Below, piece by piece: positions 872-32,639 of a DNA stretch of 64,000 nt. A model generated the notes under the pieces. That model ran no database searches. It saw only the letters and a program-made list of their open reading frames with translations, and was not told the DNA's origin. Position numbers and translations under genes: made by a program. Position 1 is the first letter of the stretch, and each line of letters starts with the position of its first letter. Origin of the DNA: Faecousia sp. (GTDB lineage: Bacteria > Bacillota > Clostridia > Oscillospirales > Oscillospiraceae); the NCBI GenBank assembly GCA_034104845.1, contig JAXECZ010000062.1, positions 1,303 to 65,302 on the forward strand. Direction: 5' to 3'.

Positions 872-2995
872 TTACTCAACGCCCAATGCTTTAAATACGG
901 CATCTTCCGCACTCTGGTATGGAATCAGTTGAAATGCACTCATTAATTCCGGCGGGACAGTGGAAAAATCGATAAAAGATGTGCTTGGGATTAAAATTTT
1001 CTTTGCCCCGCTGTCCAAACAAACCTGCAACGTATTAGCCAGCTCATCCACTTTTATCATGGTCCCGCTGATTGTGATATCGCCCAAAACCACCAGGGAG
1101 CTTTGAACTGGCTTTCCCAGTGCAATAGAACATAAGGCGATCAGTGTCGGCAGTGCCAGTTTCCCGGTCATTCCGATACCCTGAAGGTCTTGATAGTTGA
1201 CGATATAATCCTTTGTCGCTGCGCTGATGGAGCCGCTGATCCGGTTGCCATTAGCCTTTAGGAAATTAAAAGCTGTATTTGTTGCTTCACGGGCATCTCT
1301 GTCAGATCCAATGCCCGTACGCTCGAACTTGCCGCTGCCCGGCAGCATCTGGCTTTCGAGGCGGAATACGCCAATCATACCACTCTTCCCACGAGATACC
1401 GTGTAGACCTGCCCGGGATTGCATATTCCTTCCGGGATCAGCTTTCCTCCACTCTGCTCTGGTACCGAGACATAATGTTCAGACATATCCTCCAAATCTA
1501 TGTAAGAGAAGTTGACGTCGTAGAACTCCATGCCGCCCAGCTTTTTCAGCTGCTCTTTTACACGACGACGCATCTCAAGTGCCAGTTTCAGTACCTCTTC
1601 CAGCTGCTCTTTGGTAAATTCACCATCCGGATACAGAAGCTTGAGATATCCGTCCACCATCTTCCGAACCGCAATGGTATCGCGTTGATTCAGGTTTCGC
1701 CCCAACCGGAAATAGTGGTCAAGGGCGTCTCCGTACTGCTCTTTGCGGAGTTCACGGATGAACTCCGCAAGATAATCGCTGATAAATCCATAATCATTGG
1801 TAAAGTGCTCCGGTCGAAACTTTGGGATCTCCCAGCCGGGAAGATAGCAGTGGATCCGATCAAGGAAGGCCGTATCCATACCCATTTCCGGCGGGAATGG
1901 ATCAAACAGGCTGCTGGTTTTCAGCAGCACATCCACGCTTTGGTTGATGTTGCCCACAAAAACCATGGAAGCAGAAGCCGCTTTTTCTTCTTTCCCGCGG
2001 GCGAAGGAACCGGAAGCCATGTAGTCCTTCATAATCTGAACGCCGTCTTTATCCTTGAATCGGATACCGGCGACCTCATCAAAGGCTACGCAGTCCCAGA
2101 GGCCAACCAACCCCACCGTCTTGCGCCCCATGTTATAAAAAAGATTTGCTACGGTTGTCTGTCCGCCAGACACAAGAATACTGTTCGGCGAGATCTCTTT
2201 GTATAGATGTGACTTGCCCGTGCTGCGGGGTCCAAGCTCACAGAGGTTGAAATTGTTCTCCACCAATGGAATCATTCTGGTCAGGAGCAGCCATTTCTCG
2301 CGTTCTGTCAATTCGTCCGGCTCCATACCGATGGAGCGAAGGAGAACGTCCATCCATTCTTCCTTTGTAAACGCCTTCCGCCCCTGCTTCAGGTCGGACA
2401 TCTCAATATGGGGCATCTGAATCGGTGTCAGTTTGCGGATCTTTATAGGGTAATCATCTGGCTTTTTCTTTTTGGACGGGATTTTCTCGCCAAACATAGA
2501 TACGGAAACAATGTTGTTCCCAAAGCCTTCCTCATCAGATGTGTATTCCAGCTGGACAATGCACCAAATACCGCCGCAAAGAAGGCGGTCAAATTTTTCC
2601 GGATACTCATCGGCGATAGGAACATTGGTCAGCCCGAGATTAGAGAAAGAAGCAAGATAACTGTTTTTCTTGATATCCAGCGTCACTGTGACCATATCAA
2701 TGACCGTATGGCTACCTCTGCTGCGAAGTTTTGACAATATTTTCTGCGCCTCATCTGGGCGCACAAAATTGTCTGCCAAAATTCGCTTCACATTCTGGAC
2801 GCCTTTTTCGATGACTTCTTCATCATCAGAGCTGCAATACTGCCCCAGAAGGAACTCGAGGACATATACGGGCACATTGGCCCCCTCTTTAATTTTCTTC
2901 GTTAAGTCTTTTCGGACAATTTTGCCGTCGAAGTTCTGACGCAGTTTGCCTTTGATTATTTCGCGGGTGCTTACGCCCTCTTCCAGTGTATCCAT
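872..2995 (-). CDS. brxL: BREX Lon protease-like protein BrxL (707 aa)
   Basis: Track ORF 872..3016 starts on a TTG. The ATG at 2995, preceded by GGAGGAGG (3001-3010), is the likelier start. It has the P-loop LGPRSTGKSHLY and a C-terminal Lon-protease-like segment (PTLIALCSIALGKPVQSSLVVLGDITISG). It is the terminal gene of the BREX cluster. Confidence 0.9.
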   Translation of the reverse strand: MDTLEEGVSTREIIKGKLRQNFDGKIVRKDLTKKIKEGANVPVYVLEFLLGQYCSSDDEEVIEKGVQNVKRILADNFVRPDEAQKILSKLRSRGSHTVIDMVTVTLDIKKNSYLASFSNLGLTNVPIADEYPEKFDRLLCGGIWCIVQLEYTSDEEGFGNNIVSVSMFGEKIPSKKKKPDDYPIKIRKLTPIQMPHIEMSDLKQGRKAFTKEEWMDVLLRSIGMEPDELTEREKWLLLTRMIPLVENNFNLCELGPRSTGKSHLYKEISPNSILVSGGQTTVANLFYNMGRKTVGLVGLWDCVAFDEVAGIRFKDKDGVQIMKDYMASGSFARGKEEKAASASMVFVGNINQSVDVLLKTSSLFDPFPPEMGMDTAFLDRIHCYLPGWEIPKFRPEHFTNDYGFISDYLAEFIRELRKEQYGDALDHYFRLGRNLNQRDTIAVRKMVDGYLKLLYPDGEFTKEQLEEVLKLALEMRRRVKEQLKKLGGMEFYDVNFSYIDLEDMSEHYVSVPEQSGGKLIPEGICNPGQVYTVSRGKSGMIGVFRLESQMLPGSGKFERTGIGSDRDAREATNTAFNFLKANGNRISGSISAATKDYIVNYQDLQGIGMTGKLALPTLIALCSIALGKPVQSSLVVLGDITISGTMIKVDELANTLQVCLDSGAKKILIPSTSFIDFSTVPPELMSAFQLIPYQSAEDAVFKALGVE

Positions 2996-3022
2996 GTTGC
3001 GTCCTCCTCCGAACAACCTTTA

Positions 3023-5623
3023 TCAAAAGAAATTGAACTCATCCACCGCAAACGCAATATCAATCTGGAATTCCTCACGCTGCGGAGCCTGAAGGCCGCT
3101 TTCATCCGCGATGACCAGATAATAGCTGTCGCGATTGCTGTATTTCTGGGAGCGCAGATTGAAACTGCAGCGGAAGGTCCTGTCCTGACCGTTTCGGCTT
3201 GTTTTGTCTGCGATGATCTTGCTTGTATCACTGATCTGCTTTCCATTGGAATCAGTAAAGTAGACCAGATAAGTGGCTGCCTCCCGATTGCCGCCCACAG
3301 CCTCTGTCTGATAGAAGTTCAGCGAGAAAATCATGTTGCTGATCTTCCGGTTGGCAGACAGCAGGTTCACCACTACCGGCTTCGTGTCGATTTTATCCCT
3401 GTTGCGCTGGTATGCTTTTGTGGACGAACGAAGATGCTGGTATTGGATCACCGGCACAACCATTTCCTGTAGACTGGCTCCGCCATGAACAAAATTAAGG
3501 CCGCCGCCGTTCATCTTGATCCGAATGTTCTCTCTTGGCGCGTACGCCTCATAGTCCGCAGCCCCATCAAGAAATTTCACCGGCATCAGATAATCCGGGC
3601 TTGTGCCTGCCTGGGTGATGGCATAGCGCCTGCCATATTCCACGGTATGCTTCGCGAAACCGGACTTGTCCACCTTGTCATCTTCCTTCAGGGGGCTGTA
3701 GGTGTACAGGAAGCCGTGATCGGCAGTCATGTAAACTCTGGTGCCGCCAAACTCATTGACGATAATGCGGACCAGATTCTTGATCTCTTCAATCGCCTCA
3801 TCACAGGCCGGGAACACAGCGCTGTCTGAGGTGTGGCTGGCTTCATCGATTTTATCGTGATAGATATACACAATGTCCATGCCCTTGACCAATGCCTGCC
3901 GGTCAGAGCGTTTCATCTTGACGATGTTCTTATACTGAAGGGCCACACTGGCCCCGTGTGCATCCTTCAAAACCTTGTCCCGGTTTGGCATTTCGGTGGG
4001 CTTGCCGTCCGCAAAAACGGCAAGACCGCCAGCAACTTTCGGCTGTACGCTTAAGGTTTTATGAGGCAGCAAAGCCGCCATACCAAATTTGGTAATGGTG
4101 GGGAAAATACCCTCACAGCTGCTCAGCTCCACCTTGCCCTGCATTTCGCGCTGAAGCTGTTCAGACAGGGAGGCAGCAACCTCATAGCGGAGCGCGTCGG
4201 AAATAATAACATAAACCTTGTTGTCGTTTCCCGCGATTCTGCCGCGATAGAATGCCGTCTGCTGCGGCACTTCCAGGATGTGTCCGTACGCCGCAAGCTG
4301 CTCAGCACAGATATCCGACCAGTTCTGTCCCAGGGAACCGAGGAACCAGTGCGTGTACAGGCCCTCTACCTTTTCCGTTACATGCTTAAACAGGTCGTCC
4401 AGCAGTGGGTTGGAAATCCGTAACGAACGTTGGAAACAAAGGTGGTACTGCCGGTAATAGCTGTCCATCTTATAATAATCGCTGGTATATTCCTTCCACA
4501 CCTTGTGCGGCTCCACCGTATGAAAACCGGCAGAGTGCTCCAGGAAGAACGCCTGCATGTTGGCAACCTGAAGAATTCCTTCATAGTAACAGGCTGTATC
4601 CGCATACCAGGCAAGTGTCCGGCGCTTTTCGACTGCCTTTTGTATGGCGTCTACATTGATGATGTGGTCGCTGATTTCCGTCATCAGCATAGTCAAGATG
4701 CATTCATTGATACAGGGGAAGCACTCCGTATCCACCAAATCCTCTGCCGCCAGCCGGCAGAACCGGTCGGGAAGCCTTGCTTCTTCCTCTACGTACCGGG
4801 CTACCTCGTAGAGCTGCCCGCAATCCTCGCTGTGAAGCCAGTCGGATACCAGATCATAACAATACGCCTGATGAGGCATAGAAAGGAAGGCATCCAGCCC
4901 TGCCAGATTGTCCTGGTGTATGGTTCTGGTGGATGCAGTCAACAAAAGATGAATCGCCAACCGTCCGAGGTTCGATTCCTCACCTTCGTTGTAGCCGGTT
5001 GCCCGTGCCACCATGGCCCAGAACGCATTCTGTGCGCCGTAGGTTACAAAGCTCTGGTAAACGCTGTTCTCCTCTATATCCAATCCGGAGCGAATGACCG
5101 CACGGATGATGCTGCCCAGCTGGGTATCGGAAATGCCGCAAAGCGCCGCCATGACAGCAAGATGCATCTGGGAAGCCGTGCTGATGTTGATGTTCAGCCT
5201 GGCCACTGCGTCACGCCGCGCCTTGGCATTGAAGAACTTCCGGTAATGCTTCACCTGCTTGCGGATAATTTGAGTAGACGGCAGGCCCATCTCATCCATC
5301 CAGATGGAATTCAGATCAGCCCGGAACTCCTCGCTGTACAGCTGCACATTGATAAGCCAGTTGTCGTCATCGCGCTGAAACGAACGGGGATCGTAAACAA
5401 GGAAGTTGTCATGGGTTCTTTCCTCGCAGAGCAGCTTCTTTACCGCAAAGGTGTTGTTCCCGGTCAGGACAATCACCTCGGCATGATTCAACTCCAGCTC
5501 GGATAGCTTGTCTTCAAACTCCCGGTCCTCATCGCGCCAGAAGATAATCCGGCGCTGGTAAAATTCTGGCAGCGGCGCCGCAAAACGGCGATTCAATTCC
5601 TGGATGATTTTATCGGTTTCCAT
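3023..5623 (-). CDS. pglZ: BREX alkaline-phosphatase-superfamily protein PglZ (866 aa)
   Basis: Track ORF 3023..5731. The internal METDKIIQELNRRFAAPLPEFYQRRIIFWRDEDREFEDKL is the typical PglZ N-terminus, giving a start at 5623. PglZ-domain core: KVYVIISDALRYEV ... MTADHGFLY. It lies between pglX and brxL. Confidence 0.9.
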   Translation of the reverse strand: METDKIIQELNRRFAAPLPEFYQRRIIFWRDEDREFEDKLSELELNHAEVIVLTGNNTFAVKKLLCEERTHDNFLVYDPRSFQRDDDNWLINVQLYSEEFRADLNSIWMDEMGLPSTQIIRKQVKHYRKFFNAKARRDAVARLNINISTASQMHLAVMAALCGISDTQLGSIIRAVIRSGLDIEENSVYQSFVTYGAQNAFWAMVARATGYNEGEESNLGRLAIHLLLTASTRTIHQDNLAGLDAFLSMPHQAYCYDLVSDWLHSEDCGQLYEVARYVEEEARLPDRFCRLAAEDLVDTECFPCINECILTMLMTEISDHIINVDAIQKAVEKRRTLAWYADTACYYEGILQVANMQAFFLEHSAGFHTVEPHKVWKEYTSDYYKMDSYYRQYHLCFQRSLRISNPLLDDLFKHVTEKVEGLYTHWFLGSLGQNWSDICAEQLAAYGHILEVPQQTAFYRGRIAGNDNKVYVIISDALRYEVAASLSEQLQREMQGKVELSSCEGIFPTITKFGMAALLPHKTLSVQPKVAGGLAVFADGKPTEMPNRDKVLKDAHGASVALQYKNIVKMKRSDRQALVKGMDIVYIYHDKIDEASHTSDSAVFPACDEAIEEIKNLVRIIVNEFGGTRVYMTADHGFLYTYSPLKEDDKVDKSGFAKHTVEYGRRYAITQAGTSPDYLMPVKFLDGAADYEAYAPRENIRIKMNGGGLNFVHGGASLQEMVVPVIQYQHLRSSTKAYQRNRDKIDTKPVVVNLLSANRKISNMIFSLNFYQTEAVGGNREAATYLVYFTDSNGKQISDTSKIIADKTSRNGQDRTFRCSFNLRSQKYSNRDSYYLVIADESGLQAPQREEFQIDIAFAVDEFNFF

Positions 5624-5891
5624 CGGTATTTCCCTCTTCCCCGGCAATTTCAACGCTGTTCCTGCCCTGCTGGGAGGTACGCTTCCTCGTCTGATATTCC
5701 AAATACAGTTCTTCGGCAAGATATTCGTCACTCATGCAGTGCAGATCGGACACGCCATCCCGAAGGAGTGGATAAACCTGCGAACCATAGAAGAAATCCA
5801 ATGCAGCGTCCAGGGAAATGCCTGCCTTTTGCGCAAAGCATTCCATCACACGGGCATATTTCTTTTGGAGCAAAATCGGGTTTGCATTCAT
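5610..5891 (-). CDS. Small helical protein, DUF3791-like (93 aa), third gene of the cassette nested in BREX
   Basis: ORF MNANPILLQKKYARVMECFAQKAGISLDAALDFFYGSQVYPLLRDGVSDLHCMSDEYLAEEL... It overlaps the upstream ORF by 4 nt (5888-5891) and the probable pglZ start by 14 nt. Confidence 0.6.
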   Translation of the reverse strand: MNANPILLQKKYARVMECFAQKAGISLDAALDFFYGSQVYPLLRDGVSDLHCMSDEYLAEELYLEYQTRKRTSQQGRNSVEIAGEEGNTDGNR

Positions 5892-6358
5892 ACCTGTTCA
5901 CTTCCTTCAAAATGCAGCTGTGCCAATGCCTTTTCCGTACGGAAACAAATTTGCAGATTTGGTTTTTCATACCGCAGACGGCTGATCGCTTCCGCTTTGT
6001 CAATCAGTCCATCAAAGAACAGTTCCACGGTATTGAACACCTTATCATTTGCCACGCCGCCGATTACGAGATCATAGTCTGTACAATCCTTTCCGCTTCG
6101 GCAGTTCAAAATAAAATCCAGCCACTGCTCGGAATAGGTATCAAATTTCAGCGTTTTCAGCCCAGCCTCCTGTGCCTCGTCGAAGGAATAGCGGGAAATA
6201 ATTCCATCTTTTCCCCTGCGCTTGAACTTGCCGCACCACTTTGCAGCCTGCTCATAAAGCGGGGTGGTATAAAATCCAAGGCCAAAATCCACATTGGGTC
6301 TGGAATGCTTCAAATCGGGATGGGGAATTTCCAGAAAAGAACCGTGATAAACGATCAT
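5888..6358 (-). CDS. DUF3990-family protein (156 aa), possible ADP-ribosyltransferase-like fold
   Basis: The N-terminus MIVYHGSFLEIPHPDLKHSRPNVDFGLGFYTTPLYEQAAKW matches my recollection of the DUF3990 signature (YHGS ... DFGxGFY). It has 4-nt overlaps with both flanking small ORFs. Confidence 0.7.
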   Translation of the reverse strand: MIVYHGSFLEIPHPDLKHSRPNVDFGLGFYTTPLYEQAAKWCGKFKRRGKDGIISRYSFDEAQEAGLKTLKFDTYSEQWLDFILNCRSGKDCTDYDLVIGGVANDKVFNTVELFFDGLIDKAEAISRLRYEKPNLQICFRTEKALAQLHFEGSEQV

Positions 6359-6591
6359 ACTTCCACACCCCTTTCCTTCATCACATCGACAAGGTCATTC
6401 ACAATGTATTCCTTGCTCTGGGTATGCAAAATCTCATATTCCGGCACAATGTATTCGTTCAGGATACGGCTCTTTTGGGTAAAGGCTTGATAGACCTGTT
6501 CCGCACCCACCCCCAGTCTGGCGGCAACATTTTCGATGCAGAATACGGCAAATTCCAATTCCCTGGAATTTTTGATGGTTCCTTCCAGCAT
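6355..6591 (-). CDS. DUF3791-family small protein (78 aa from ATG 6591; the track ORF extends to 6630)
   Basis: MLEGTIKNSRELEFAVFCIENVAARLGVGAEQVYQAFTQKSRILNEYIVPEYEILHTQSKEYIVNDLVDVMKERGVEV. The ELEF.VFCIEN..A...G and HTQSKEYIV patterns are typical of DUF3791. A GAGGAGG lies at 6602-6609. The longer version would overlap the pglX 3' end by 23 nt. Confidence 0.65.
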   Translation of the reverse strand: MLEGTIKNSRELEFAVFCIENVAARLGVGAEQVYQAFTQKSRILNEYIVPEYEILHTQSKEYIVNDLVDVMKERGVEV

Positions 6592-6607
6592 ACTGTTCCA
6601 CGCCTCC

Positions 6608-9600
6608 TCACTTGATTTTTGCCAAAACATCCTTGAAAATTTCGTAGTTGTGCTTCACGCCGTCGTCCAGGTCGATGGAAATCATCTGGTCAGCCAGATG
6701 GTGAATCTTTTCTTCGTAGACATGGACCTCGGCGGCCTGCTCCTGTAGTTTCTTCAGCTGCTTGTTAAGCTTCACCCGTTCGCTGGTGGAAGCGGTAGCA
6801 CTGCGGTTTTCCAGATCAGCAATAGCAGTACGGTAGCGGGACTGCTGTTCATGCACATAGTCCGTGCGGATCCGGGCAATGGTGTCTTCTCTGTAGCGGT
6901 GCATATAGATCAGGCACTTGAAGCCGTTTTTCTTACCGCTGTCAAACTGCCAGTAGATGGGACGCTTCTGGTAGATTTTGCAGTGGTCACTATAGAAGTC
7001 GTTCAGGAAGTAGCTGCGGATGACCTCTTTCGGCCGACCCTTGCCGCCAAGGGCATCGGCAATGAAGCGGAGGTTCGATTCCAGACTCTGCTTTCCATAG
7101 ACGGTTTCGATGAATTTGATGAAGCGGCCAACGATGTCGTCCTCGAAGTATTCGTCATCGCAGATGGGGATAATATTATCTGTATCCGGGCTGTAGGTGC
7201 AGTCCAGCCACTGTCCATCCACTTGGATTTGATACCCCTTGTTCACCGCAATTCGGACGCCGCCAAAGGTGATGGTATCCCCGTTTTCCGCCAGTGCATT
7301 CCGCCGATAGGTATCCTCCCACTCGCCGCCAGCGTAGACCAAGCCGGAGCGGTTCAGGGAGTACCGGCCAAACATACAGCCCACGGCGTAGGAAATCAGG
7401 CTCTTGATATCCCGCTGGAGGTCTGCTTTGCGGACGGTCACATCCCTGTCCTCCACCTCCGGGGTCAGCTCGTTTTGCAGGCCGTAGATCTCGATGAAGA
7501 TGCGGTTCAGTTCTTCCTCGTTGGCTTTCAGCTTCTGGAAACGGGTTTCACACTCGTTTTCCCAGCACATATAGCATTCAGCCAGGTCGATGCTGTCAAT
7601 GTCATCAAAAAGCAGGCGGTTCTTAGGAATCACGGAAATCAGAGGGTGGCGCTGGAAATCCCAAGAGGTTTCAAAGGAGTCCCAATCTATTCTTGACAAT
7701 TTAATATTTTCATCACACATATTGTCAATTTCCTGTTGCGGATTATCAAGAAGTGGTAATTTTTCTATATCTCCACTAACTATACTCATTCCGGGCGATA
7801 TCACCTTGACAAAATATTGGCAAACTTTGCTATTCATAAAGGAAAGAATATAGTTCATATCATCCTGAGCCGGAAAGCCCTTTAAGCCTACAGAGCTAAA
7901 CACAAAGCCTACTGGCGAATAGCGAACAGACAATTCCGAAGCAATTTTCGACCATGTTAGCCCCTCACGGAAATAGTATTGTCTTGATGGCAAGCGATTT
8001 CCCATTTCAAGCAACCTATTATAACTATTAGTATCAAAACGAATTACTCGATCATTATTTCCATACCACTTCCTATATGTACCACCTTTGTCTATGGGAA
8101 AATAAGTTAGACAGGATGCATGGGCCGACTCGGTTGAAGTATAGTTAAAGCCAAGCTCAGTATAAGACGGTTCAAACCAATATCGAACAAACATTTCATC
8201 ATCACCTGTGGATGTTCCCTGCTTTGGCATTAGTTTTTCTCTAAGTGCGCTTCCTCTCCTAAAATCACAAATTGCAATGTCTGAAATGTAGTAAGCAAAG
8301 GGCTCACCTGGAATGTCTCTAAATTTGCCGACATCCCGAACATTTCTTGTTAACGGGTCAAAGAAAGCACTCTCTTTAGCATCCTCACCAGTGAAGCTCG
8401 TTAAATTTATGAACGAAGTATTATAGTTTGCAATATAATTACTGTTCATGTAGCAGAACGCCGTTGTTTGAACAACTTCCCCGTTAATCTCATCGAACGC
8501 ACGTGTGCCTAAATGGTTCATACAAATAAGAAGTTTTTCATAGAGTTTTTCACGAATCTTTTCAAAGCGGGCTTGAAACATCCATGTGGATTGTGTAATC
8601 ATGGAAACATATCTTCCTGAAAACACAAAATTTCTTTCAATAAAGGCAGCATACAGGTCTGCCTTGCTATCTTCATAATTATCTTTGATGTATTCTAGCA
8701 ACGTATTTCCCATATTGGGACTTCCAATGTAAGGAGGATTCGTCACCACCACATCATACTTCTGCGCCAGCATAGCGGCAATCTCAACCAGACGCCACAG
8801 CTTTTCCTTGGTTTCCCCCAAATTGCCTGCATCAAAATCCAGCTGTCCAGAGTAGTCCACCGTACCGACAAAGCGATACAGCAGTTCCCAGTCGTAATCC
8901 TTGACAATGAGGATGGAGCCATATTCTTTTGCGTCCTGCATGGCATCCAGCAAATCCGTCATCTGATCCAGTGCCATATTCCGCTCGATATCGCTCATGC
9001 TCCAACCGAAATACTTGAGGGAACCGCGGCTGATGGTGTTGCTCTCGCAGATGGCGTACACATAGGGCTGGGGGACATCAGGATTGCCGTCCTCGTCTTT
9101 CCGGGTCAGAAAACGCCGGTCATACTGCCGGGCCTTCATCATCACAGCGAAGTAAGAAAGTTGCGCTGCCCGGTCATCAATGTCCAGACCATAAAGGTTG
9201 TGCGCCACAATACTGGCTACCGCTTCCTGGGTGGTATAGCCGTAGCTCTGGTAGATTTGCATCAGCACATCGAACATGTAGGCAAGGATATGACCAGAAC
9301 CACAGCAGGGGTCAATGCACTTAATCTGTTCCGGTGTCAAAGCTGCACATTCCTTACGGATTGCATCCATCTGTGCCTGTACTTCTGGTTCCTGAGGTGC
9401 ATCAAAAAGGTAGTATTTCCAGCGAGAGATCATGAGTTCATTCAAATCTCCCGGGCGTTCATCATATTCATCTCTAGCGCTGCCAGCGTTGTGTTCAACC
9501 CAAAGACGGCCCAAGCTGTTCTCCACCATATAGCGCACGATCCAGTCCGGAGTGAACAACTGAGTGGCGGCAGGAATGTTCTCCTTGGTGATCTTCACAT

Positions 9601-10273
9601 TCTTCTTTAGAGCGGCGAAAACTTCATCCTTTTTCTCACTGTTATAGTACTGATACAGCCAGCCGATGATCTGTACCTGATCTGTCCAGTCTTTCTCTGG
9701 AATCAGTTCGATCATCTGCTGAATGACGCTGCCTTTCCGGAGCAGATTGTCCGGGAACAGAAGCTCCGTATAATCCGCGATTCTTTGGAACATTCCTGGC
9801 AGGATTCCGCTCAGTGCGTTACACTGGGTAATGAGCAGCAATTTATACAGTTCCTCTTTTTTATCGGCATTCTTGAGCTGATAGACCTTCTCCTTGTCCA
9901 GCCCCTCCAACTCCAGGTCGATGGCCTCAGTCAAGATTTTGGGGTTAAATTCACCCGCATCATCGGTAAACACCCGCACGTGGGTAGGCAGATAGCGGTT
10001 GACCTCCATAAAGCGCAGGGCAGCAAAGCGATTGAACCAGGTATAGGCCACCTCTTCCATGACCTCCCGATAGCCCTTCTGCTGGATCTGGGCAATCAAC
10101 GCCTGACGCTGTTGTTTCTCGGTGGGCGTCAAAACCCTGCCCCGAACACTGTCCGCCGCTGGATCTCCAAAGCCTTCCTCGCTGATGTCATACAGCGCCG
10201 CCCGCTGGGACACCCGGGAGATCAACTCCCGCCGCGCCCAGACTGCGTATTTTTTGATCGCATTTTTATCCAT
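6608..10273 (-). CDS. pglX: BREX N6-adenine DNA methyltransferase PglX (1221 aa)
   Basis: The N-terminus MDKNAIKKYAVWARRELISRV is typical of PglX. SAM-binding motif I is IDPCCGSGHIL and catalytic motif IV is VVVTNPPYIG. Size is ~1200 aa and it sits between brxC and pglZ. Confidence 0.9.
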   Translation of the reverse strand: MDKNAIKKYAVWARRELISRVSQRAALYDISEEGFGDPAADSVRGRVLTPTEKQQRQALIAQIQQKGYREVMEEVAYTWFNRFAALRFMEVNRYLPTHVRVFTDDAGEFNPKILTEAIDLELEGLDKEKVYQLKNADKKEELYKLLLITQCNALSGILPGMFQRIADYTELLFPDNLLRKGSVIQQMIELIPEKDWTDQVQIIGWLYQYYNSEKKDEVFAALKKNVKITKENIPAATQLFTPDWIVRYMVENSLGRLWVEHNAGSARDEYDERPGDLNELMISRWKYYLFDAPQEPEVQAQMDAIRKECAALTPEQIKCIDPCCGSGHILAYMFDVLMQIYQSYGYTTQEAVASIVAHNLYGLDIDDRAAQLSYFAVMMKARQYDRRFLTRKDEDGNPDVPQPYVYAICESNTISRGSLKYFGWSMSDIERNMALDQMTDLLDAMQDAKEYGSILIVKDYDWELLYRFVGTVDYSGQLDFDAGNLGETKEKLWRLVEIAAMLAQKYDVVVTNPPYIGSPNMGNTLLEYIKDNYEDSKADLYAAFIERNFVFSGRYVSMITQSTWMFQARFEKIREKLYEKLLICMNHLGTRAFDEINGEVVQTTAFCYMNSNYIANYNTSFINLTSFTGEDAKESAFFDPLTRNVRDVGKFRDIPGEPFAYYISDIAICDFRRGSALREKLMPKQGTSTGDDEMFVRYWFEPSYTELGFNYTSTESAHASCLTYFPIDKGGTYRKWYGNNDRVIRFDTNSYNRLLEMGNRLPSRQYYFREGLTWSKIASELSVRYSPVGFVFSSVGLKGFPAQDDMNYILSFMNSKVCQYFVKVISPGMSIVSGDIEKLPLLDNPQQEIDNMCDENIKLSRIDWDSFETSWDFQRHPLISVIPKNRLLFDDIDSIDLAECYMCWENECETRFQKLKANEEELNRIFIEIYGLQNELTPEVEDRDVTVRKADLQRDIKSLISYAVGCMFGRYSLNRSGLVYAGGEWEDTYRRNALAENGDTITFGGVRIAVNKGYQIQVDGQWLDCTYSPDTDNIIPICDDEYFEDDIVGRFIKFIETVYGKQSLESNLRFIADALGGKGRPKEVIRSYFLNDFYSDHCKIYQKRPIYWQFDSGKKNGFKCLIYMHRYREDTIARIRTDYVHEQQSRYRTAIADLENRSATASTSERVKLNKQLKKLQEQAAEVHVYEEKIHHLADQMISIDLDDGVKHNYEIFKDVLAKIK

Positions 10274-10287
10274 AATATATGTACCTT

Positions 10288-11097
10288 TTATCCGTTATTC
10301 TGCTTTGCGGCAAGGCGATCCCGGTAGTATTGAAGGACAAAAAGTTTAACACCTGCCATCTGCTCGCGTCGCTCTGCCTCAATACAGCGTCTTATTTTTT
10401 CGTCGAGAAAATCAATAGTAAGCGTCCCCGCTTCCTGACGCTCTAAGCATAAGCTTTCAGTATCTTTGAAAAGATCTCTACGTTTCTTTACCAGTTCTGT
10501 TGTCGTATCTTGCGTACATATATGATTTTCGTCCAGCTTACCGTTCAGAAACAGGACTGCATCCAAATCATGCTGCAATATCTGCTGTGACCAAGTCTCA
10601 GACTCCCGAATACTGATGACTCCATCACTATCATAAGTGATTAGTTTCATCATTTCCTCGTTTCTTGGGTCAATAACCATGCTATCGTTATCTCCCTTTT
10701 TTGCATCACAGCAGATAACCCGCTCTTCTCCTTCACCAAGTGCAACATCACTGCCACCCTTACATGTTCCAAGGAAATTGTAATAATCTATTGCCTTTTC
10801 TTTGTCCCTGCTCAATGGAGAAAAATGTTCGATAGTCATTTTATCTCCATCATGTTCAATAGGAAGCATACAATATGCACACAAACCGTGCTGTTCCTTC
10901 AACAACGCGTCCCGAATCGTTTTTTTCGGAAGTTCGTCAAAGAAATTCTTGCGAAGTTTATTAGCCCATCGATGTCTTTCATGCTCAGGAAGAGCGCCCA
11001 AGTTGCAGGGAATACTGGCCCATGACGGTCTGGCTTTTAGTTGTGTGATTTTCTGCTGAACCTCTTCTGGGCAAGGTCCTTTCTCTATATATAGCAT
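10288..11097 (-). CDS. HNH-type nuclease-like protein (TIGR02646 / Septu PtuB-like), 269 aa
   Basis: The segment HGLCAYCMLPIEHDGDKMTIEHFSPLSRDKEKAIDYYNFLGTCKGG carries CxxC ... IEH.xP ... N, as in HNH proteins that partner with ABC-type ATPases. It starts 15 nt after the ATPase gene and ends 14 nt before pglX. The DNA is AT-rich. Confidence 0.65.
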   Translation of the reverse strand: MLYIEKGPCPEEVQQKITQLKARPSWASIPCNLGALPEHERHRWANKLRKNFFDELPKKTIRDALLKEQHGLCAYCMLPIEHDGDKMTIEHFSPLSRDKEKAIDYYNFLGTCKGGSDVALGEGEERVICCDAKKGDNDSMVIDPRNEEMMKLITYDSDGVISIRESETWSQQILQHDLDAVLFLNGKLDENHICTQDTTTELVKKRRDLFKDTESLCLERQEAGTLTIDFLDEKIRRCIEAERREQMAGVKLFVLQYYRDRLAAKQNNG

Positions 11098-11112
11098 AAA
11101 CCTCTCCCACTC

Positions 11113-12363
11113 TTAAAAGTCCAACTTACGCTTTGCGCTTTTTACTTCTGCATTATCGGGGCCATAAAGATCAAGCATTTTTTCGTACATATCCTGTGCC
11201 ACGGTCATATTGTTATGATAATACGCATTTTCAAAGTTCTTCTTTAAAAGCTGTAACTGTTTGGGAATCCCAGAACTTCCTTGCCGAAGTTCAACAACAT
11301 CATTTATAGAGTAAGCATAGGCTTGAGAGGGGTAATCCACTTCGTGGTATTCATTAATATGAATTATTTTTGCTGTTTTACAGGAGGAAATAACAATCGG
11401 CGCATGGGTTGCAATGATAAATTGAATATTAGGGAATGTTTCTGCCAGAGCGCCAACTGCATTCCACTGCCATTTAGGATGCAAATGCATGTCGATTTCA
11501 TCAAGCAGTACAATGCCTGATGCATCCGAAGAATCCTTCATAGTAGGATTCAACTGCGCCAGACGAAATGCAAGGTCCATTGCGATCCAAAGAACAGATT
11601 GATATCCTGCACTTAGGAACGTAACGGGGAGCTCGTCATCCCCCTCTCTATAAACGATATCACGAAAAACAGAAGAATATCGAACAGAAGGATTCGTTGC
11701 AAGCTCATTCATGCTTCTCATTATTTTAGAAATGGTATTATTGAACAAATCTATTTCTTGAATTTCTGTATTCTGAAAATGCGCTTCATAAGACATTTTC
11801 ATTATCCATTCCATAATGCTGTTTTTGCTAGGAATGCCATCTAGGCTGCCAATGTAACCGCAGCGTCTGTCATTTAACTCGTTCTTTTGTTTTTTTCCAA
11901 AGTCCGCTCTCTTAGAAGAGATAACACGCGAAATGCTCATATAAGAAAGAATAGGAAGGACTGCATCTACATCGTTCGCAATATTCTGTAAATACTTCTT
12001 TGCCTCACTACCTGTTGTGAGTGACTTTCCATATCCCGAAGGATCATCTCTTCTGCGGCTACAGTAAATCATTTCTCCATCAACGTCAATTGCTAAATTA
12101 ACTCTAGGCCCAGCATATGAAATCACATTAGAGGCATTTGTTACTCTCAAAACTTTTTGGCGAAAATCATCCTTCTGAAATCCATTTGCAGGAACGCCAG
12201 GAATGCCACTTAATAGGCCGTTTAGTCCGACTGCCAAAGCTTCCAAAATAGAGGTCTTACCTGCGCCATTATCACCGATAATCAAGTTTATACCAGGATT
12301 AAATTCCAAATCGATGTTCTCAATTCCTCGGAAATCCTGAATATTTGCATCACTTAGAAACAA
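11113..12363 (-). CDS. ABC/SMC-type AAA ATPase (AAA_15/AAA_21; Septu PtuA-like), 416 aa, TTG start
   Basis: Walker A is IIGDNGAGKTSILEAL, the signature-like motif is LSAGYQS, Walker B/D-loop is IVLLDEIDMHLHPKWQ and the H-loop is IIATHAP. The in-frame codon upstream of the TTG is a stop. An AAGGAAAGG RBS lies 9 nt upstream. One 60-nt line (11701-11760) counted by hand is 27% GC. Confidence 0.7.
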   Translation of the reverse strand: MFLSDANIQDFRGIENIDLEFNPGINLIIGDNGAGKTSILEALAVGLNGLLSGIPGVPANGFQKDDFRQKVLRVTNASNVISYAGPRVNLAIDVDGEMIYCSRRRDDPSGYGKSLTTGSEAKKYLQNIANDVDAVLPILSYMSISRVISSKRADFGKKQKNELNDRRCGYIGSLDGIPSKNSIMEWIMKMSYEAHFQNTEIQEIDLFNNTISKIMRSMNELATNPSVRYSSVFRDIVYREGDDELPVTFLSAGYQSVLWIAMDLAFRLAQLNPTMKDSSDASGIVLLDEIDMHLHPKWQWNAVGALAETFPNIQFIIATHAPIVISSCKTAKIIHINEYHEVDYPSQAYAYSINDVVELRQGSSGIPKQLQLLKKNFENAYYHNNMTVAQDMYEKMLDLYGPDNAEVKSAKRKLDF

Positions 12364-12477: not shown

Positions 12478-15400
12478 TTATTTCAGCTGAATCCCATCAC
12501 AGCCCTTCATCAGCTGTTTTAGCTGCTGGCGCATTTTCTCAACATAGGCATCAATGTCCGCTTCGCTTTCCAGGCGTTTCGTCGGGAAGATGACCTGCCG
12601 ATTGTACGACTTGATAATCTTCTTCGGCGCGGGAGGTGTTGTGGTTCCGCCACTGGTATAGGTTACAGGCGGCTTCGGTTCCGGAGGTACTAACATCACC
12701 TCAATGCTGCCGCAGGCGGAATCCTTGTACTGTAGCATCGGCGGAACGAGACCATCCAGCAGAGCAAGGCTCTTCAGTTCCTTGATGGTGTCCCGCTTCT
12801 GTGTATAATACTTATCTGCCTTGTCGACAATATCTCTCGTATTGGGGTTTCCGTTTGCTGCCTGGTGGATGGCACCCATACACTGGGTTACAATCTCCAT
12901 CACTTCCTCACGCTTTGCCGCCAGCAAACGATTGTGTCCTTCCTGGACAGTTGCCATCAGGCCGTTCAACTCAGGTATGTGCTTGTAGCGAAAGCCACCG
13001 GACACCGATGTAATCAGGCGAATCTGGTTCAGCGCATGGTTTGCTTCCGGCTCATGAGAGAGGTAATCCAGCTCATTGCGCAGATCCAGCTCCATCTGGG
13101 CAGCCGCGTCAAAAATCTGCACCTGATTCTTGAAGAACCCCTCCACCTGCGCCAGACTCTCCTTGCTGTCAAAGAGGTCATCTTCCCGCTTCAGGAGACG
13201 GTCGATCAGGGCAATGTTATCCTTCTGCTGAGAAAGAATATCCGCCATCAGCTGAATCGCTTGCTGTACCTTATCCCGGTCCGGGTACTTTCTGCCGGAC
13301 TGATAGCGCTGGTCTAGGGCTTCATAATGCGCTTTCTGATCCGTGAACTTGCGGACAATAAAGGCGACCATGCCGTCCTCATTGTCCGGCACATCCATGA
13401 TGTCGAAATATTCACGCAGAAGTTCCTTCGCCGCTTTCATTTTCTGAGCAGAGACCATGTGCCGCACGGAGATACTGGTCTTGCCGATCTCGCTCTTTTT
13501 CCGCAGCATATCCGGCAGCTTCGGGTTATCCGGCTGGATGGTCGTGCCGCCATATTTGATGGTGACTTTCTGCTGCACGATCAGCAGAGCAGCCACAGCA
13601 GCCACATCGATTTCCTTCCAGCCATAGGGGATCCCCTGATAGCGGCTCTGAACGTCAGCCATGGAAGTGGGCAGCTTGATCCTGTCCTGAACAATCAGGT
13701 ATTCCTCCATCTTCGCCGCTGCATCCCGGTTCGGTTCCGTGCCAGGGATCATTTGTTCCGCGCCGGAGAGAATATTCAAAATGTCCCCATCCGTTTCCGC
13801 GTTTTTCGTAATCAGATTCAGTTCACTGTACACATGAACGACAAGATATTCCAGCGCCTGCTCGATCCTGGACTTGGCATCGCCGCTGCGAATCTCCAAA
13901 TGCTCACCATCCACATAGAACGCCGCTGCCTCGATGGCTTTTTTCAGCTGTTCCATGGCATCCTGCTCATAGCGGCTGGCTTCCTCCTGCTTGTCACGAA
14001 TGATATCCTCCACGGACTTCGGCAGCTGGGCTATGCGCTGCTTCGCATATTTGCGGATCTTCATGGCGCTTTCCAAATTCTCGTAATACAGAGAATTCGG
14101 AAGAACGACAATTGCCTGACCTCTGGACTCCGTCATGAGGCGAAGCTCGCTTTTTTCGACAGCGTCCGTTGCCACAGTCAGGAAGCGCAGCTTCATGCCG
14201 CCGGTGGAAGCGCCTGTGGTTACGCCGTCCACCATCTTGTCAAAGTCAAAATCGTATTTTCCATAGCGGAACTTTTTGGTGGTGAAGATATCTCCGTAAA
14301 TCATCTGCGCGATACGATCCACAATGGCCGCAGTATCTACGCTGGTGTTCCGTATTTCCCGCTGGATGTCCTGCTCCTCGTCGGTCAGGAAATTATAGAT
14401 ATCCCCGGACCTGCCAATATAGTTCTGGCTGAGAAGACGGTTCAGGGATTCCCTCGTTTTCTCACGGAGAGTAATTTTGTCAGTACGGATATCGTCCGCC
14501 ATCAGGATGACAATATTGTCAATGTTGGCAGGAATATCGTCCACATAGCGGATCAGATACAGGAGCTTCAGCACATCCACATCCTGGGCTTCGATACCAT
14601 CGCCGCTGTCTGCCGCTTTCTGGCAGCGCTCGATCACCCGGCGGATAGAACCATCCAGGAAGGTATGCACGGTATCATAGAAGCGGAAGAACGGCACAAG
14701 GGCATATTCATCCTCGGTCTGGATCTTCTGCGCTGCTTCCTGGAAGCCGGAAAGCATGGAACGCTCGCCGCCGGACAGGTGCTTTCCGGAATTTCCGTGT
14801 TTCCGAATCTCGGCAAAGACCTTCTGCATGACAATAAACTGATAGGGCACGAAGGGGAAGTTAACTGCAAATTCATTTGGGCCGGTGTATCCCTTGATAT
14901 CCAGAATGGAATCGGTGAAGCTGAACAGATTCCGAAGAACAGAATCATTCCGGTCGTACAGCTTCTCCAGCGCGGTTTCCGCCCCCGGCTTTTTCTTCAG
15001 AATACGCTTCTGGATCACTTCATCCACAGAGGAGGACGACAGGCTCAGCCGAGTTTTAAATCTTGCCTGAATACGGGAGAACTCATCGGCGCGAACCTTA
15101 ATGATCTCGTCAATGGCTTCCTGCCCGGTGCACACCACCCACACTTTGCCGCCGCATTCGCTGCCAATCTTCTCAGTCAGAGATTGAAGATTCAGCAGCA
15201 TATCGGTATCCGTGCCCACATACTGGCCAACTTCGTCGATCATGAACAGCAGGCGGAAGTTATCCGGCTTGCTGCCTACATAGGACTTGATGTCCTCCAC
15301 CAAACGGGCAATGGAGAACTCAACAGCCGTCTTGTCGGTAAACCAGCGCTTTGCATCCTCCTCGCTCATATCCAGGACTTCCATCAACGTTGGAATAATG

Positions 15401-16014
15401 AACTTTCCGTTGAACGCAAAGGCCTTACGCTGGTCGATCCACGGCTTGCCCTTTTTCTCCTCAAACACCCGGCGGAATTCTTCGGTTTTTCCCAGCTGGT
15501 CAATATACTGCTCCAACATGGCAACCTTCAAGTTTTCGCCATAGAAGCCCAGGTGATTGTAGAACATCTTGGCAAAAACCCGGAGCACCGCCGTTTTGTC
15601 CTTGTTGATGGAACCTTCAATATCGATATTGAACAGAATGGTTTCCGTTTTGCCCCGGGTTGCGCGGTCAATCAGCAGGAAGGTTGCCGGATCCTCCTCA
15701 AACTTCTTGCGAAACAACTCTACCGTGGTCTCGCCGTCAATCTTCCTGTTCTCCAAAATATAGGACAGCATTTTCAGGAAGTGAGATTTACCGCTTCCAA
15801 AGAACCCTGAAATCCAAACGCCAATATCGGCAGTTGGCTTTTCAAAGGCATCACTGTAATAATCAAAAAAAGAAATGAAATGCTTTTTCAGTTCGCGGGT
15901 AATGACATATTCCCGCACTTCCTGCTTGATGACATCAGTGGCATCCTGGTCAACCTTGATCACGCCGTTGATTGGACGGTTGATATCTTCGGCAAACATG
16001 TCCCGAATCAACAT
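12478..16014 (-). CDS. brxC: BREX P-loop ATPase BrxC (1178 aa)
   Basis: P-loop ISGFFGSGKSHFLKML, Walker B LFMIDEVGQYV, ~1200 aa. It starts 13 nt after brxB. Confidence 0.9.
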   Translation of the reverse strand: MLIRDMFAEDINRPINGVIKVDQDATDVIKQEVREYVITRELKKHFISFFDYYSDAFEKPTADIGVWISGFFGSGKSHFLKMLSYILENRKIDGETTVELFRKKFEEDPATFLLIDRATRGKTETILFNIDIEGSINKDKTAVLRVFAKMFYNHLGFYGENLKVAMLEQYIDQLGKTEEFRRVFEEKKGKPWIDQRKAFAFNGKFIIPTLMEVLDMSEEDAKRWFTDKTAVEFSIARLVEDIKSYVGSKPDNFRLLFMIDEVGQYVGTDTDMLLNLQSLTEKIGSECGGKVWVVCTGQEAIDEIIKVRADEFSRIQARFKTRLSLSSSSVDEVIQKRILKKKPGAETALEKLYDRNDSVLRNLFSFTDSILDIKGYTGPNEFAVNFPFVPYQFIVMQKVFAEIRKHGNSGKHLSGGERSMLSGFQEAAQKIQTEDEYALVPFFRFYDTVHTFLDGSIRRVIERCQKAADSGDGIEAQDVDVLKLLYLIRYVDDIPANIDNIVILMADDIRTDKITLREKTRESLNRLLSQNYIGRSGDIYNFLTDEEQDIQREIRNTSVDTAAIVDRIAQMIYGDIFTTKKFRYGKYDFDFDKMVDGVTTGASTGGMKLRFLTVATDAVEKSELRLMTESRGQAIVVLPNSLYYENLESAMKIRKYAKQRIAQLPKSVEDIIRDKQEEASRYEQDAMEQLKKAIEAAAFYVDGEHLEIRSGDAKSRIEQALEYLVVHVYSELNLITKNAETDGDILNILSGAEQMIPGTEPNRDAAAKMEEYLIVQDRIKLPTSMADVQSRYQGIPYGWKEIDVAAVAALLIVQQKVTIKYGGTTIQPDNPKLPDMLRKKSEIGKTSISVRHMVSAQKMKAAKELLREYFDIMDVPDNEDGMVAFIVRKFTDQKAHYEALDQRYQSGRKYPDRDKVQQAIQLMADILSQQKDNIALIDRLLKREDDLFDSKESLAQVEGFFKNQVQIFDAAAQMELDLRNELDYLSHEPEANHALNQIRLITSVSGGFRYKHIPELNGLMATVQEGHNRLLAAKREEVMEIVTQCMGAIHQAANGNPNTRDIVDKADKYYTQKRDTIKELKSLALLDGLVPPMLQYKDSACGSIEVMLVPPEPKPPVTYTSGGTTTPPAPKKIIKSYNRQVIFPTKRLESEADIDAYVEKMRQQLKQLMKGCDGIQLK

Positions 16015-16027
16015 GGTCAGTTCCTCC

Positions 16028-16585
16028 TTAAATCACATTGAACGCTCTATAATAGTCGTTCGGCTGTAGTCTGTTGAACAATTTCAGATGGTAACGGTCA
16101 AACTCTCCGGGATACATGACCAAGATCGGCACATCGGAAAAGTACGGCTGCAACGCTTCCAACAGGGTGTGTACCCGCATGAAGGGAAACGCATCTCCTA
16201 CACCGGTCAGCAGCAGCACATCTCCCAGCTTATGAGGAGAATACTGAATTTTTTCAATAAATTCATCTGTGCCAATCGCCGAGTGGAGTTGCTCCAGAAG
16301 GAATTCGCTCCCATCGGATTCTTCCATCTCCGGGATAGCATCCGTGATGTCCAGCTCATCACAGATGGAGAGAAAAATTTTATATAAATTGCATTCGATC
16401 AGTCTGCAAGGAACCCGCTGATCTGTCGTGATCTGGTCCACAAAATGCTGAACGGCCATCTCATCAGCAGGGTCGTAACAGAAAATCCGGATGTTGACTT
16501 CATTGCTTAAGCCCTTACCCTCCAGGAAGTCTGGCTCCTGAATCAACTGGCGAAGTTCATCCAGTCGTTCGTTTATGGATTTCAT
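16028..16585 (-). CDS. brxB: BREX protein BrxB (DUF1788), 185 aa
   Basis: Size and position between brxA and brxC. The sequence (..FCYDPADE..LLLTGVGDAFPFMRVHTLLEALQ..) is consistent with DUF1788. Confidence 0.85.
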   Translation of the reverse strand: MKSINERLDELRQLIQEPDFLEGKGLSNEVNIRIFCYDPADEMAVQHFVDQITTDQRVPCRLIECNLYKIFLSICDELDITDAIPEMEESDGSEFLLEQLHSAIGTDEFIEKIQYSPHKLGDVLLLTGVGDAFPFMRVHTLLEALQPYFSDVPILVMYPGEFDRYHLKLFNRLQPNDYYRAFNVI

Positions 16586-16598
16586 TTACCGCACCTCC

Positions 16599-17228
16599 TC
16601 AAGAGAAATAGTTAAATGCCGGGAATGCGATTTCGTCATGATGCTCCCGGATCGCTGTCTCAAGGACGGGATTCAGCCAAACCGGATTCAGATGATTGGC
16701 ATTGGTATCGTCCAAATACTCGTTTTCTACCAATATACGGGCAAGTACCTGTTTGATTTTTGCGATGGTATTTTCACTCCATGTGGCAACCCCATCGTCC
16801 TGCTCCTGCAAACGAAGAAAAAAAGTGTTCAAGTCAATTTTCCCAAATGAGTTGTCCCGCATTCGGTATTTCTCACCAATCACCGTAATCATGAAATCCC
16901 ATACCAACCGATACTGCTTCATCATGGCATACAGACAGATCTGCTTTGCCACGTCAGACGGCTGCCCAGCCAGAGCCGCCACGAGGGTAGTGTCATTCAT
17001 CGTCCGCAGCCGATTGATGCAGGTCTGTGCCATTTTTCGTACAGATTTTTCTGTAGGATATTGAAACAAGTTTTCTGATACAATTTTATTGACAACCGCT
17101 TTGTCGCCCAGACCATCACACATCAGTTTGGCCGTTGTACGGGTTTCATAGAATAAATACTGCTCTCTAGTCAGCACCGCACTGTACGGACTGGCCGCAC
17201 GGCGTGCTGCAATTGATTTTTCTGCCAT
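16599..17228 (-). CDS. brxA: BREX protein BrxA (DUF1819), 209 aa
   Basis: First BREX gene, ~200 aa and helical. A GGAGGT RBS lies upstream of the ATG, and it ends 13 nt before brxB. Confidence 0.85.
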   Translation of the reverse strand: MAEKSIAARRAASPYSAVLTREQYLFYETRTTAKLMCDGLGDKAVVNKIVSENLFQYPTEKSVRKMAQTCINRLRTMNDTTLVAALAGQPSDVAKQICLYAMMKQYRLVWDFMITVIGEKYRMRDNSFGKIDLNTFFLRLQEQDDGVATWSENTIAKIKQVLARILVENEYLDDTNANHLNPVWLNPVLETAIREHHDEIAFPAFNYFS

Positions 17229-17297: not shown

Positions 17298-17507
17298 TCA
17301 CATTTTGTCCGGAAGGATTTCAAGGATATCATCCACCGAACAATTCAGCGCCAGACAAATTCGAGCCACTACCTCCATGGAGACAATCTCGTCTCTTCCC
17401 ATTTTACTCAATGTACTGGCGCTGACATTTGCTAACTTGCACAGCTCTTTTTTCTTCATTTTCTTGTCGATCAGAAGCTTAAATAATTTATTATATGAAA
17501 CCGCCAT
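17298..17507 (-). CDS. XRE/Cro-type HTH transcriptional regulator (69 aa)
   Basis: Track ORF 17298..17678. The internal start MAVSYNKLFKLLIDKKMKKKELCKLANVSASTLSKMGRDEIVSMEVVARICLALNCSVDDILE is preceded by AGGAGGAGAA (17511-17520). It shows the HTH_3-like pattern and lies 69 nt upstream of brxA. Confidence 0.75.
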   Translation of the reverse strand: MAVSYNKLFKLLIDKKMKKKELCKLANVSASTLSKMGRDEIVSMEVVARICLALNCSVDDILEILPDKM

Positions 17508-17560
17508 GCTTTCTCCTCCTTGCATAGGGATGCCGATTAGAATATCAATTCTTTCTTTAT

Positions 17561-17589
17561 AGCATAACACAAATACGGACGAATGTAAA
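17561..17589 (-). promoter_or_regulatory. Candidate sigma-A promoter for the HTH/BREX operon: TTTACA-N17-TATGCT
   Basis: On the minus strand, TTTACA (17584-17589), a 17-nt spacer and TATGCT (17561-17566), about 50 nt upstream of the HTH start. Confidence 0.4.
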
Positions 17590-17701
17590 TTATTAATAAC
17601 GAGTTCTCGCAAGTTTTTAAGTATTAGGAAATCCTCGACCAATTCCAAATAAAAGGATCCTCTTTTCAAATCTCCCACATTTTGCCGTCTTTTCAGCTCG
17701 C

Positions 17702-32602: not shown

Positions 32603-32639
32603 TTTTTGTCCTCCTGCCTTCAATAGCCAGTTGATTTCG

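Follow-up and report, generated by a model that had tools for sequence, protein, structure and literature searches.

A PDC-M13 cassette encoding a predicted ADP-ribosyltransferase-fold protein and two DUF3791 paralogues occupies the pglX-pglZ junction of a type 1 BREX operon in Faecousia sp.

Organization of the locus

The window analysed here is a stretch of 64,000 nucleotides from Faecousia sp. (assembly GCA_034104845.1, contig JAXECZ010000062.1, positions 1,303 to 65,302 of the forward strand). It contains a complete type 1 bacteriophage exclusion (BREX) operon, typed by Pfam matches of the flanking proteins PglX, PglZ, BrxL, BrxC, BrxB, and BrxA. Between pglX and pglZ lie three small genes, designated A, B, and C, which encode a DUF3791 protein, a DUF3990 protein, and a second, divergent DUF3791 protein. 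This trio is the subject of the present study. All coordinates are window positions, and the trio as well as the BREX operon are located on the minus strand. The upstream flank of the trio is the BREX methyltransferase gene pglX (6608-10273; Pfam Eco57I and MmeI_Mtase), and the downstream flank is pglZ (3023-5623; Pfam PglZ, E 1e-50). The longest possible open reading frame (ORF) of pglZ extends to 5731, and a ribosome-binding site (RBS) marks ATG 5623 as its likely start.

An earlier, sequence-only reading of this DNA had described three co-directional ORFs in the junction and had called them tightly coupled. Both statements were confirmed, the ORFs being those of 91 aa at 6355-6630, of 156 aa at 5888-6358, and of 93 aa at 5610-5891. 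Genes A and B share a 4-nt ATGA overlap (6355-6358), genes B and C share another (5888-5891), and gene C overlaps the pglZ ATG at 5623 by 14 nt. The 91-aa frame is the longest ORF of gene A; its true start is almost certainly ATG 6591, since a GAGGAGG RBS (6607-6601) stands in front of this codon and homologues are 78-79 aa long. Gene A therefore has 78 aa (6355-6591) and is separated from the pglX stop codon (6610-6608) by a 16-nt leader (6592-6607), with the RBS directly behind the stop. In gene C, a core of approximately residues 1-68 is conserved; the tail, which overlaps the pglZ start, is variable and not kept in homologues. A scan of the minus strand of the trio for promoters and terminators found none.

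Gene A matched Pfam DUF3791 (E 4e-22), and gene B matched DUF3990 over its full length (E 4e-52). Gene C scored 23.8 bits with the DUF3791 model, below the cut-off of 25. Its assignment comes from an alignment of diverse A-type and C-type sequences with hhalign (probability 91%, E 9e-7, 60 columns), and iterated hidden Markov models (HMMs) of A and C converged on each other. By these profile comparisons A and C are paralogues, and the families proposed in the earlier reading, DUF3791/DUF3990/DUF3791, hold for all three proteins.

Compared with 40-74 homologous loci, genes A, B, and C had dN/dS ratios of 0.05-0.09 (0.08 for gene A), which is indicative of real genes under strong purifying selection. 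Recent horizontal transfer was considered as the cause of the 81-87% identity seen across genera and rejected, because synonymous divergence is saturated (dS 1.5-1.9); the high identity thus reflects purifying selection. The GC content of the trio is 47-48%, against 50-55% in the BREX core genes and 37.5-43% in a second insert of the operon, the ptuAB pair described below. The suggestion that the trio resembles the BREX core in composition was therefore not upheld; it is intermediate between the core and ptuAB.

Identity with the catalogued candidate PDC-M13

The products of genes A, B, and C matched the PADLOC-DB v2 HMMs PDC-M13A, PDC-M13B, and PDC-M13C (E 2.6e-38, 4.3e-70, and 1.1e-37, respectively) with approximately the whole model covered. 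Gene adjacency, strand, and the order DUF3791 > DUF3990 > DUF3791-like are also those of PDC-M13. In table S8 of Payne et al. (2024; bioRxiv 10.1101/2024.01.29.577857), the arrangement FAM_00109>>FAM_00403>>FAM_00080 is assigned to PDC-M13 with a count of 257, and a permuted gene order with a count of 112 is assigned to it likewise. Judged by these matches, the trio is one more instance of PDC-M13 and not a new system, agreeing with it in protein families and gene order and showing no difference in kind. The earlier reading knew of no defence role for such a trio, although PADLOC already lists it as a phage-defence candidate. The claim of novelty fails on this ground and also because DUF3990 is already included in the Pfam ADP-ribosyltransferase (ART) clan, ADP-ribosyl (PMC7955679).

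The study of Payne et al. (2024) does not analyse the domains of PDC-M13, propose a mechanism for it, or test it experimentally, its experiments being limited to seven Hma-embedded systems; its embedding-derived candidates were found to associate weakly with defence islands. A later study validated some PDCs, M13 not being among them (PMC12881386). PDC-M13 ranks with the commonest candidate systems of gut and rumen genomes, and a rumen survey counted 3,324 PDC-M13 loci in 6,530 genomes (PMC13356809).

Fold and conserved residues of the DUF3990 protein

The gene B protein (5888-6358, 156 aa) was modelled with AlphaFold (AF2) from an alignment of 52 sequences at 36-55% identity. The model had a mean confidence score (pLDDT) of 93.5. 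A fold search of such a model had been proposed in the earlier reading, and it returned mainly ART-fold matches in both structural databases searched with Foldseek. In the PDB, the top match was the RES toxin 9r35 (E 1.7e-3, TM-score 0.49/0.52); others were the RNA-modifying RhsP2 toxin (RhsP2-CT, 7rt7), cholix toxin, exotoxin A, tankyrase, PARP14/15, and ParT, with a few unrelated folds in between at E > 0.1. In BFVD, a true homologue ranked first, with ART-PolyVal and then PARP-like and rifampin-ART proteins behind it (E 1e-4 to 1e-2). E-values were modest throughout, but the PDB and BFVD agree in their answer, and the model thus predicts an ART fold for gene B.

A homologue search over 1.8 billion cluster representatives recovered 3,258 clusters for the DUF3990 protein at E <= 1e-3, and residue conservation was counted over 518 unique DUF3990 sequences. 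The motifs MIVYHGS and DFGLGFYTT are both present in gene B as the sequence-only reading had reported, and their His5 and Tyr30 are near-invariant (462/466 and 470/472 sequences, respectively). Asp24, Trp79, Arg87, Asp96, and Asp105 are each conserved in more than 97% of the sequences, and Gly100 is essentially invariant too. The third position of the triad, located by the strand layout ("Q-I-C-F" strand vs. the "E-Y-I-V" strand of PARP), is occupied by Gln136 in 477/477 sequences and never by Glu. The PARP-like layout proposed earlier thus stands as regards the ART fold and the His and Tyr residues, but not as regards the H-Y-E triad; on the strand layout of the model, the DUF3990 triad appears to be H-Y-Q. 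Aravind et al. in 2015 reportedly allowed Gln variants within an H-Y-[EDQ] clade. Asp96 and Asp105 are candidates for a catalytic acid.

Like PARP and diphtheria-toxin-like ARTs, gene B has a strand ending in H-G-S, a G-x-G-[FI]-Y motif ~25 residues further on, and a C-terminal strand pair with the third triad position. It differs from them in Gln136 and in its much smaller size, and its Asp24, Asp96, Asp105, Arg87, and Trp79 have no assigned counterpart there. When the DUF3990 profile was aligned by hhalign with the PARP1 catalytic domain (using an approximate PARP1 sequence), only the N-terminal 60 columns aligned, with a probability of 6%. This weak alignment places YHGS on WHGS and DFGxGFY on FGKGIYF, which is illustrative and not proof.

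DUF3990 is also the C-terminal domain of Rhs effectors of the type VI secretion system, such as Serratia Rhs5 and Enterobacter RhsA, in which it takes the toxin position of a polymorphic toxin (PMC4524185, PMC10763514, PMC12165300). In contrast to the trio, DUF3990 forms part of one chain with a delivery scaffold in these effectors, and its immunity gene is unrelated or uncharacterized; it is a putative toxin.

The DUF3791 proteins and natural gene fusions

The AF2 model of gene A is a five-helix bundle with a pLDDT of 92.6. A and C are acidic (pI 4.5-4.9; 4.75 for gene A). A role of DUF3791 as a helix-turn-helix (HTH) antitoxin was considered and is not supported, as this confident model had no significant neighbour in the PDB (best E 0.9).

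The order A-B-C was found in 140 of 178 DUF3990-encoding loci, down to ~30% identity and including viral contigs. One 38%-identical copy of the trio sits between a beta-lactamase gene and ruvCAB. All three pairs of genes also occur as fusions, which are independent and belong to different lineages. A-B fusions form a cluster of 121 members, one of which was on 39 contigs, with a RefSeq entry from Dorea, and a separate C follows; B-C fusions were on 18 contigs and have a separate A in front of them; and on the Bacteroides plasmid pBF9343, C is fused to A upstream of B. Only recurrent fusion lineages were used in the argument. The fusions P0004 and P0010, which were found among the near-identical relatives, and the triple fusion P0270 are all singletons and were left aside, since frameshifts or assembly errors may have produced them. 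The three fusion types, taken with the translational coupling, argue indirectly for a ternary A:B:C complex. An effector with two small partners, as postulated in the sequence-only reading, fits the gene order, the coupling, and the fusions as far as the layout is concerned. The stability of the fusions suggests that the DUF3791 proteins are regulatory or sensing modules rather than labile antitoxins, and fused toxin-antitoxin sensors such as CapRel offer a resemblance.

A further arrangement was seen in locus L183, which contains two PDC-M13 systems (3670-4705 and 7427-8315) less than 4 kb apart, one with a B-C fusion and the other a standard trio. A Virulence_RhuM gene lies between them. RhuM is the PDC-S05 domain, and PDC-S05 has been validated as defence (PMC12881386).

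Distribution of the trio inside and outside BREX

Scanning one genome per species, we detected close relatives of the trio in 429 species and fetched 80 loci (81-87% identity). The trio was intact in all 80 wherever the contig permits. BREX genes or fragments were near it in just 26 of these loci, and 54 had no BREX gene within 10 kb; the trio occupied the pglX-pglZ junction in ~14. Co-occurrence with BREX is therefore not obligate. Relatives were also carried by 89 plasmid records, including the 17.5-kb C. botulinum plasmid pCLI, with the relative beside rep, and pBF9343, with the relative beside a zeta toxin gene. Viral copies were found in 8 GenBank phage records and on 113 IMG/VR contigs; none of A, B, or C matched a PHROGs family. 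In some genomes, the trio is an isolated insertion among housekeeping genes. By this distribution the trio is an autonomous and mobile cassette. It had been supposed to act with or alongside BREX: acting "with" BREX is unlikely, given that most close relatives have no BREX nearby and that copies reside on small plasmids and viral contigs, and "alongside" is the better word.

The loci without BREX are highly diverse, and the 150 immediate neighbours span 134 Pfam families; defence context was judged roughly, no formal enrichment is claimed, and family counts are dominated by redundant PglX models. Neighbours related to defence or mobility comprised type I restriction-modification (RM), KAP NTPase, PDC-S01, and integrase genes. 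One mobile element carries the trio together with ParB/TnpV, a large DUF4011 helicase-nuclease, Pycsar, and RhuM. Overall, the defence genes near trios included Septu, GmrSD, SLFN_AlbA_2/HATPase_c_4, Pycsar, RhuM, and type I RM.

Several related BREX loci contain further genes in the interval between the trio and pglZ. In L014, L020, and L057, they comprise one GmrSD_N-family member of 484 aa, one gene of 162 aa, and one SLFN_AlbA_2/HATPase_c_4 gene. In this lineage, the junction of pglX and pglZ is a hotspot for multiple cargo.

A DUF3990 subfamily of 187-193 aa with ~30% identity was present on many viral contigs (L126-L162), some of them longer than 100 kb; its own A-type and C-type partners were always present.

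Cassette boundaries and persistence after BREX decay

The conserved DNA block extends from 6576 to ~5694 (~880 bp, 75-79% identity), and its ends are sharp in ~50 of the 80 loci. It includes no promoter region, and homology begins at the RBS. The stop-RBS-ATG leader upstream of the trio is conserved in many homologous loci. In many loci without BREX, this leader retains the last codons of pglX and its stop (...AAAATAAAGTAAGGAGG...), so that scars of the pglX 3' end flank trios outside BREX. The pglX tail may be a repeated junction for the exchange of embedded cassettes. In two loci (L027:10710-10900 and L031:10797-10917), the pglX 3' end with the RBS/ATG leader is present as a copy downstream of the trio, immediately before another small gene.

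The head of the BREX operon in the window is a Cro/C1-type HTH_26 gene (17298-17678; Pfam), whose start is probably Met58. Its product is 53% identical to an HTH protein (L082:7476-7694) whose gene precedes stand-alone trios by ~70 nt on a mobile element, and the same HTH gene precedes brxA in related BREX loci. These defence operons may have this regulator in common. Intermediate loci have HTH, brxA, fragments, and the trio (L013, L072, L078, and L080) or HTH, a pglX fragment, and the trio (L073). A decay series can be arranged from full BREX through HTH-brxA-fragments-trio to HTH-trio. In decayed loci, short fragments of pglX, brxB, brxC, and pglZ, or HTH and brxA, flank an intact trio, and the core genes are deleted; in L066 and L068, BREX remnants lie downstream of the intact trio. 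We infer that this cassette clade lived in the pglX-pglZ junction, outlasted BREX in several lineages, and kept the operon regulator. Such persistence fits an independently selected or addictive module.

Proposed mechanism and alternative explanations

We read the trio as an autonomous, promoter-less, translationally coupled PDC-M13 cargo in BREX that acts as a toxin-antitoxin (TA)-like abortive-infection module, with an ART enzyme gated by the DUF3791 pair, and assign a probability of roughly 0.55 to this reading. Like type II TA modules, the trio has small genes that lie side by side, are co-transcribed and coupled in translation, and are found on plasmids, mobile elements, and chromosomes. 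A toxin-like role is suggested by the C-terminal position of DUF3990 in Rhs effectors, the spread on plasmids, mobile elements, and viral contigs, and the isolated insertions. Gene B would be an ART-fold enzyme with a PARP-like His/Tyr NAD pocket and an invariant Gln in the position of the catalytic Glu. The acidic five-helix proteins A and C would contact one another as well as B within a ternary complex and would silence or gate B in the manner of TA or abortive-infection systems. A phage or plasmid-loss cue would then free B, which would mono-ADP-ribosylate an essential target using NAD+ or degrade NAD+, and growth as well as phage replication would stop. NAD use, toxicity, neutralization by the DUF3791 pair, and the nature of both trigger and target are only inferred here. 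A narrower version, in which the trio is three-part abortive infection of a new class, is doubtful and is offered tentatively; in it, an H-Y-Q ART would be clamped by a pseudo-symmetric DUF3791 heterodimer serving as the phage sensor instead of a degradable antitoxin, and the released enzyme would modify a target other than protein, such as RNA or DNA.

Several observations weigh against the abortive-infection reading. The fold E-values of gene B against solved structures are marginal, the best being 1.7e-3, and neither its single sequence nor the 52-sequence profile found a meaningful relative in the PDB. Transferase activity is not assured, since the canonical catalytic Glu is absent, and gene B has a pI of 5.8 and is not basic. 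Foldseek of the DUF3791 model against the PDB showed no recognisable DNA-binding or antitoxin fold; thus no antitoxin DNA-binding domain for autoregulation could be recognized, and the cassette does not bring its own promoter region. Stable fusions of a toxin with its partner are atypical for antitoxins that act through degradation. The neighbours of the non-BREX copies are mostly housekeeping genes (PPK2, ClpB, HSP20, MatE, and homoserine dehydrogenase), and searches of the accessible full-text literature returned no experiment on PDC-M13, DUF3990, or DUF3791.

Part of this evidence could be explained by a purely selfish addiction (TA) module that has no role in phage defence, whose loss kills the cell and whose insertion the BREX junction merely tolerates. 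Copies on small plasmids beside replication genes and a zeta toxin gene, isolated insertions between housekeeping genes, and the survival of the trio where BREX decayed all favour such a module, as does the weak tie of embedding-found candidates to defence islands (Payne et al., 2024). We nevertheless regard it as unlikely in the pure form, since the trio recurs inside BREX beside other defence cargo (GmrSD, Septu, and SLFN_AlbA_2) and its mobile-element copies lie beside Pycsar, RhuM, and helicase-nuclease genes. In addition, many TA modules double as abortive-infection systems, and the addiction and defence readings are not exclusive. The invariant Gln in place of the catalytic Glu, the existence of stable A-B and B-C fusions, the mildly acidic B, and the dissimilarity of DUF3791 to any known antitoxin would also suit a DUF3990 without a toxin function. 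Such a protein might bind NAD or ADP-ribose as a pseudo-enzyme or sensor, or might carry out other chemistry (acting on a small molecule or the end of a nucleic acid, or undoing or imitating ADP-ribosylation by phages), with the DUF3791 proteins as adaptors and not inhibitors. Against this, His, Tyr, two Asp, Arg, and Trp are strictly conserved, as one would expect of a functional active site; moreover, DUF3990 occupies the C-terminal position of Rhs proteins, which is normally held by toxins, and the nearest solved folds are the toxins RES, RhsP2, ParT, and exotoxin A, which makes a non-toxin quite improbable.

The exact position between pglX and pglZ with translational coupling to both, the same position in ~14 of 80 related loci, and the failure to find an internal promoter or terminator are what would be expected of a functional BREX accessory, for example one that ADP-ribosylates or regulates PglX, PglZ, or phage DNA. 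This is very unlikely in view of the 54 close relatives that have no BREX gene nearby, the distant relatives that keep A-B-C on plasmids, in phages, and amid housekeeping genes, and the other BREX loci that hold further unrelated genes between the trio and pglZ; canonical BREX works without the trio. As to the viral copies, many of the homologues in phage records and IMG/VR contigs are in full A-B-C order, and phages use ARTs for host takeover. One could therefore suppose a counter-defence or host-takeover module of phage origin, the host copy being a prophage remnant. Nevertheless, we give this hardly any credence, because viral records make up a tiny share of the 3,258 DUF3990 clusters, no PHROG family matches, and the trio in the window sits within a defence operon of the host that has no phage genes in its surroundings.

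Comparison with known systems

RES-Xre, ParST, and DarTG likewise consist of a small ART-fold toxin beside a small neutralizing partner on plasmids or mobile elements; in the trio, toxicity and neutralization are putative. The RES toxin and ParT were among the best structural matches of gene B, and DarTG acts in phage defence. In contrast to RES-Xre and DarTG, the partners in the trio are two paralogous helical DUF3791 proteins and not an Xre HTH protein or a macrodomain. The trio further differs from RES-Xre, ParST, and DarTG in its H-Y-Q set and its three components, and no sequence-level relationship was found. CmdTAC, a toxin-antitoxin-chaperone defence system, also has three genes with an ART effector; its mRNA ADP-ribosylating toxin causes abortive infection after a phage trigger, and it has a SecB-like chaperone and an unrelated antitoxin. 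The partners in the trio are, unlike these, homologous to each other. Pfam and PADLOC searches of A and C gave DUF3791 and PDC-M13 only, with no DarG macrodomain or CmdC SecB-like chaperone.

To the existing catalogue entry, the present analysis adds a predicted ART fold with an invariant His-Tyr-Gln set, the paralogy of the partners, and all three pairwise fusions. It also adds a promoter-less cassette with pglX scars and the persistence of the trio with the HTH regulator where BREX decayed. The abundant PDC-M13 candidate now has a concrete, falsifiable model. If gene B is a toxin, it would be another immune effector based on ADP-ribosylation, and BREX operons would be shown to be landing pads and exporters of independent defence cargo. 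If the three-part H-Y-Q reading is true, two large DUF families would gain a function, as would a defence candidate that ranks with the most abundant uncharacterised ones of gut and rumen bacteria.

Other genes of the BREX operon and the window

Behind the HTH gene, the operon continues with brxA (16599-17228), brxB (16028-16585), and brxC (12478-16014), all identified by Pfam, and ends with brxL (872-3016; Pfam BrxL_ATPase, E 2e-146). Extra genes are thus present in two BREX junctions, as the brxC-pglX junction (10288-12363) contains genes for a Septu-like PtuA of 416 aa (11113-12363; PADLOC PtuA, E 4e-113) and an HNH protein PtuB of 269 aa (10288-11097; PADLOC PtuB, E 2e-31). The ptuAB pair is a second, independent cargo of the same BREX operon.

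The middle part of pglX (7601-8800) has a GC content of only 38.5-40%, compared with 48-56% elsewhere in the gene. Among relatives, PglX identity is just 52-56%, vs. 66-88% for BrxC, PglZ, and BrxL. The low-GC centre of pglX could be a swapped target-recognition region. Outside the operon, a 3,969-aa ORF on the minus strand (20714-32623), presumably encoding a giant surface protein, has 11 or more Listeria-Bacteroides repeat (Flg_new) domains and bears no relation to the trio.

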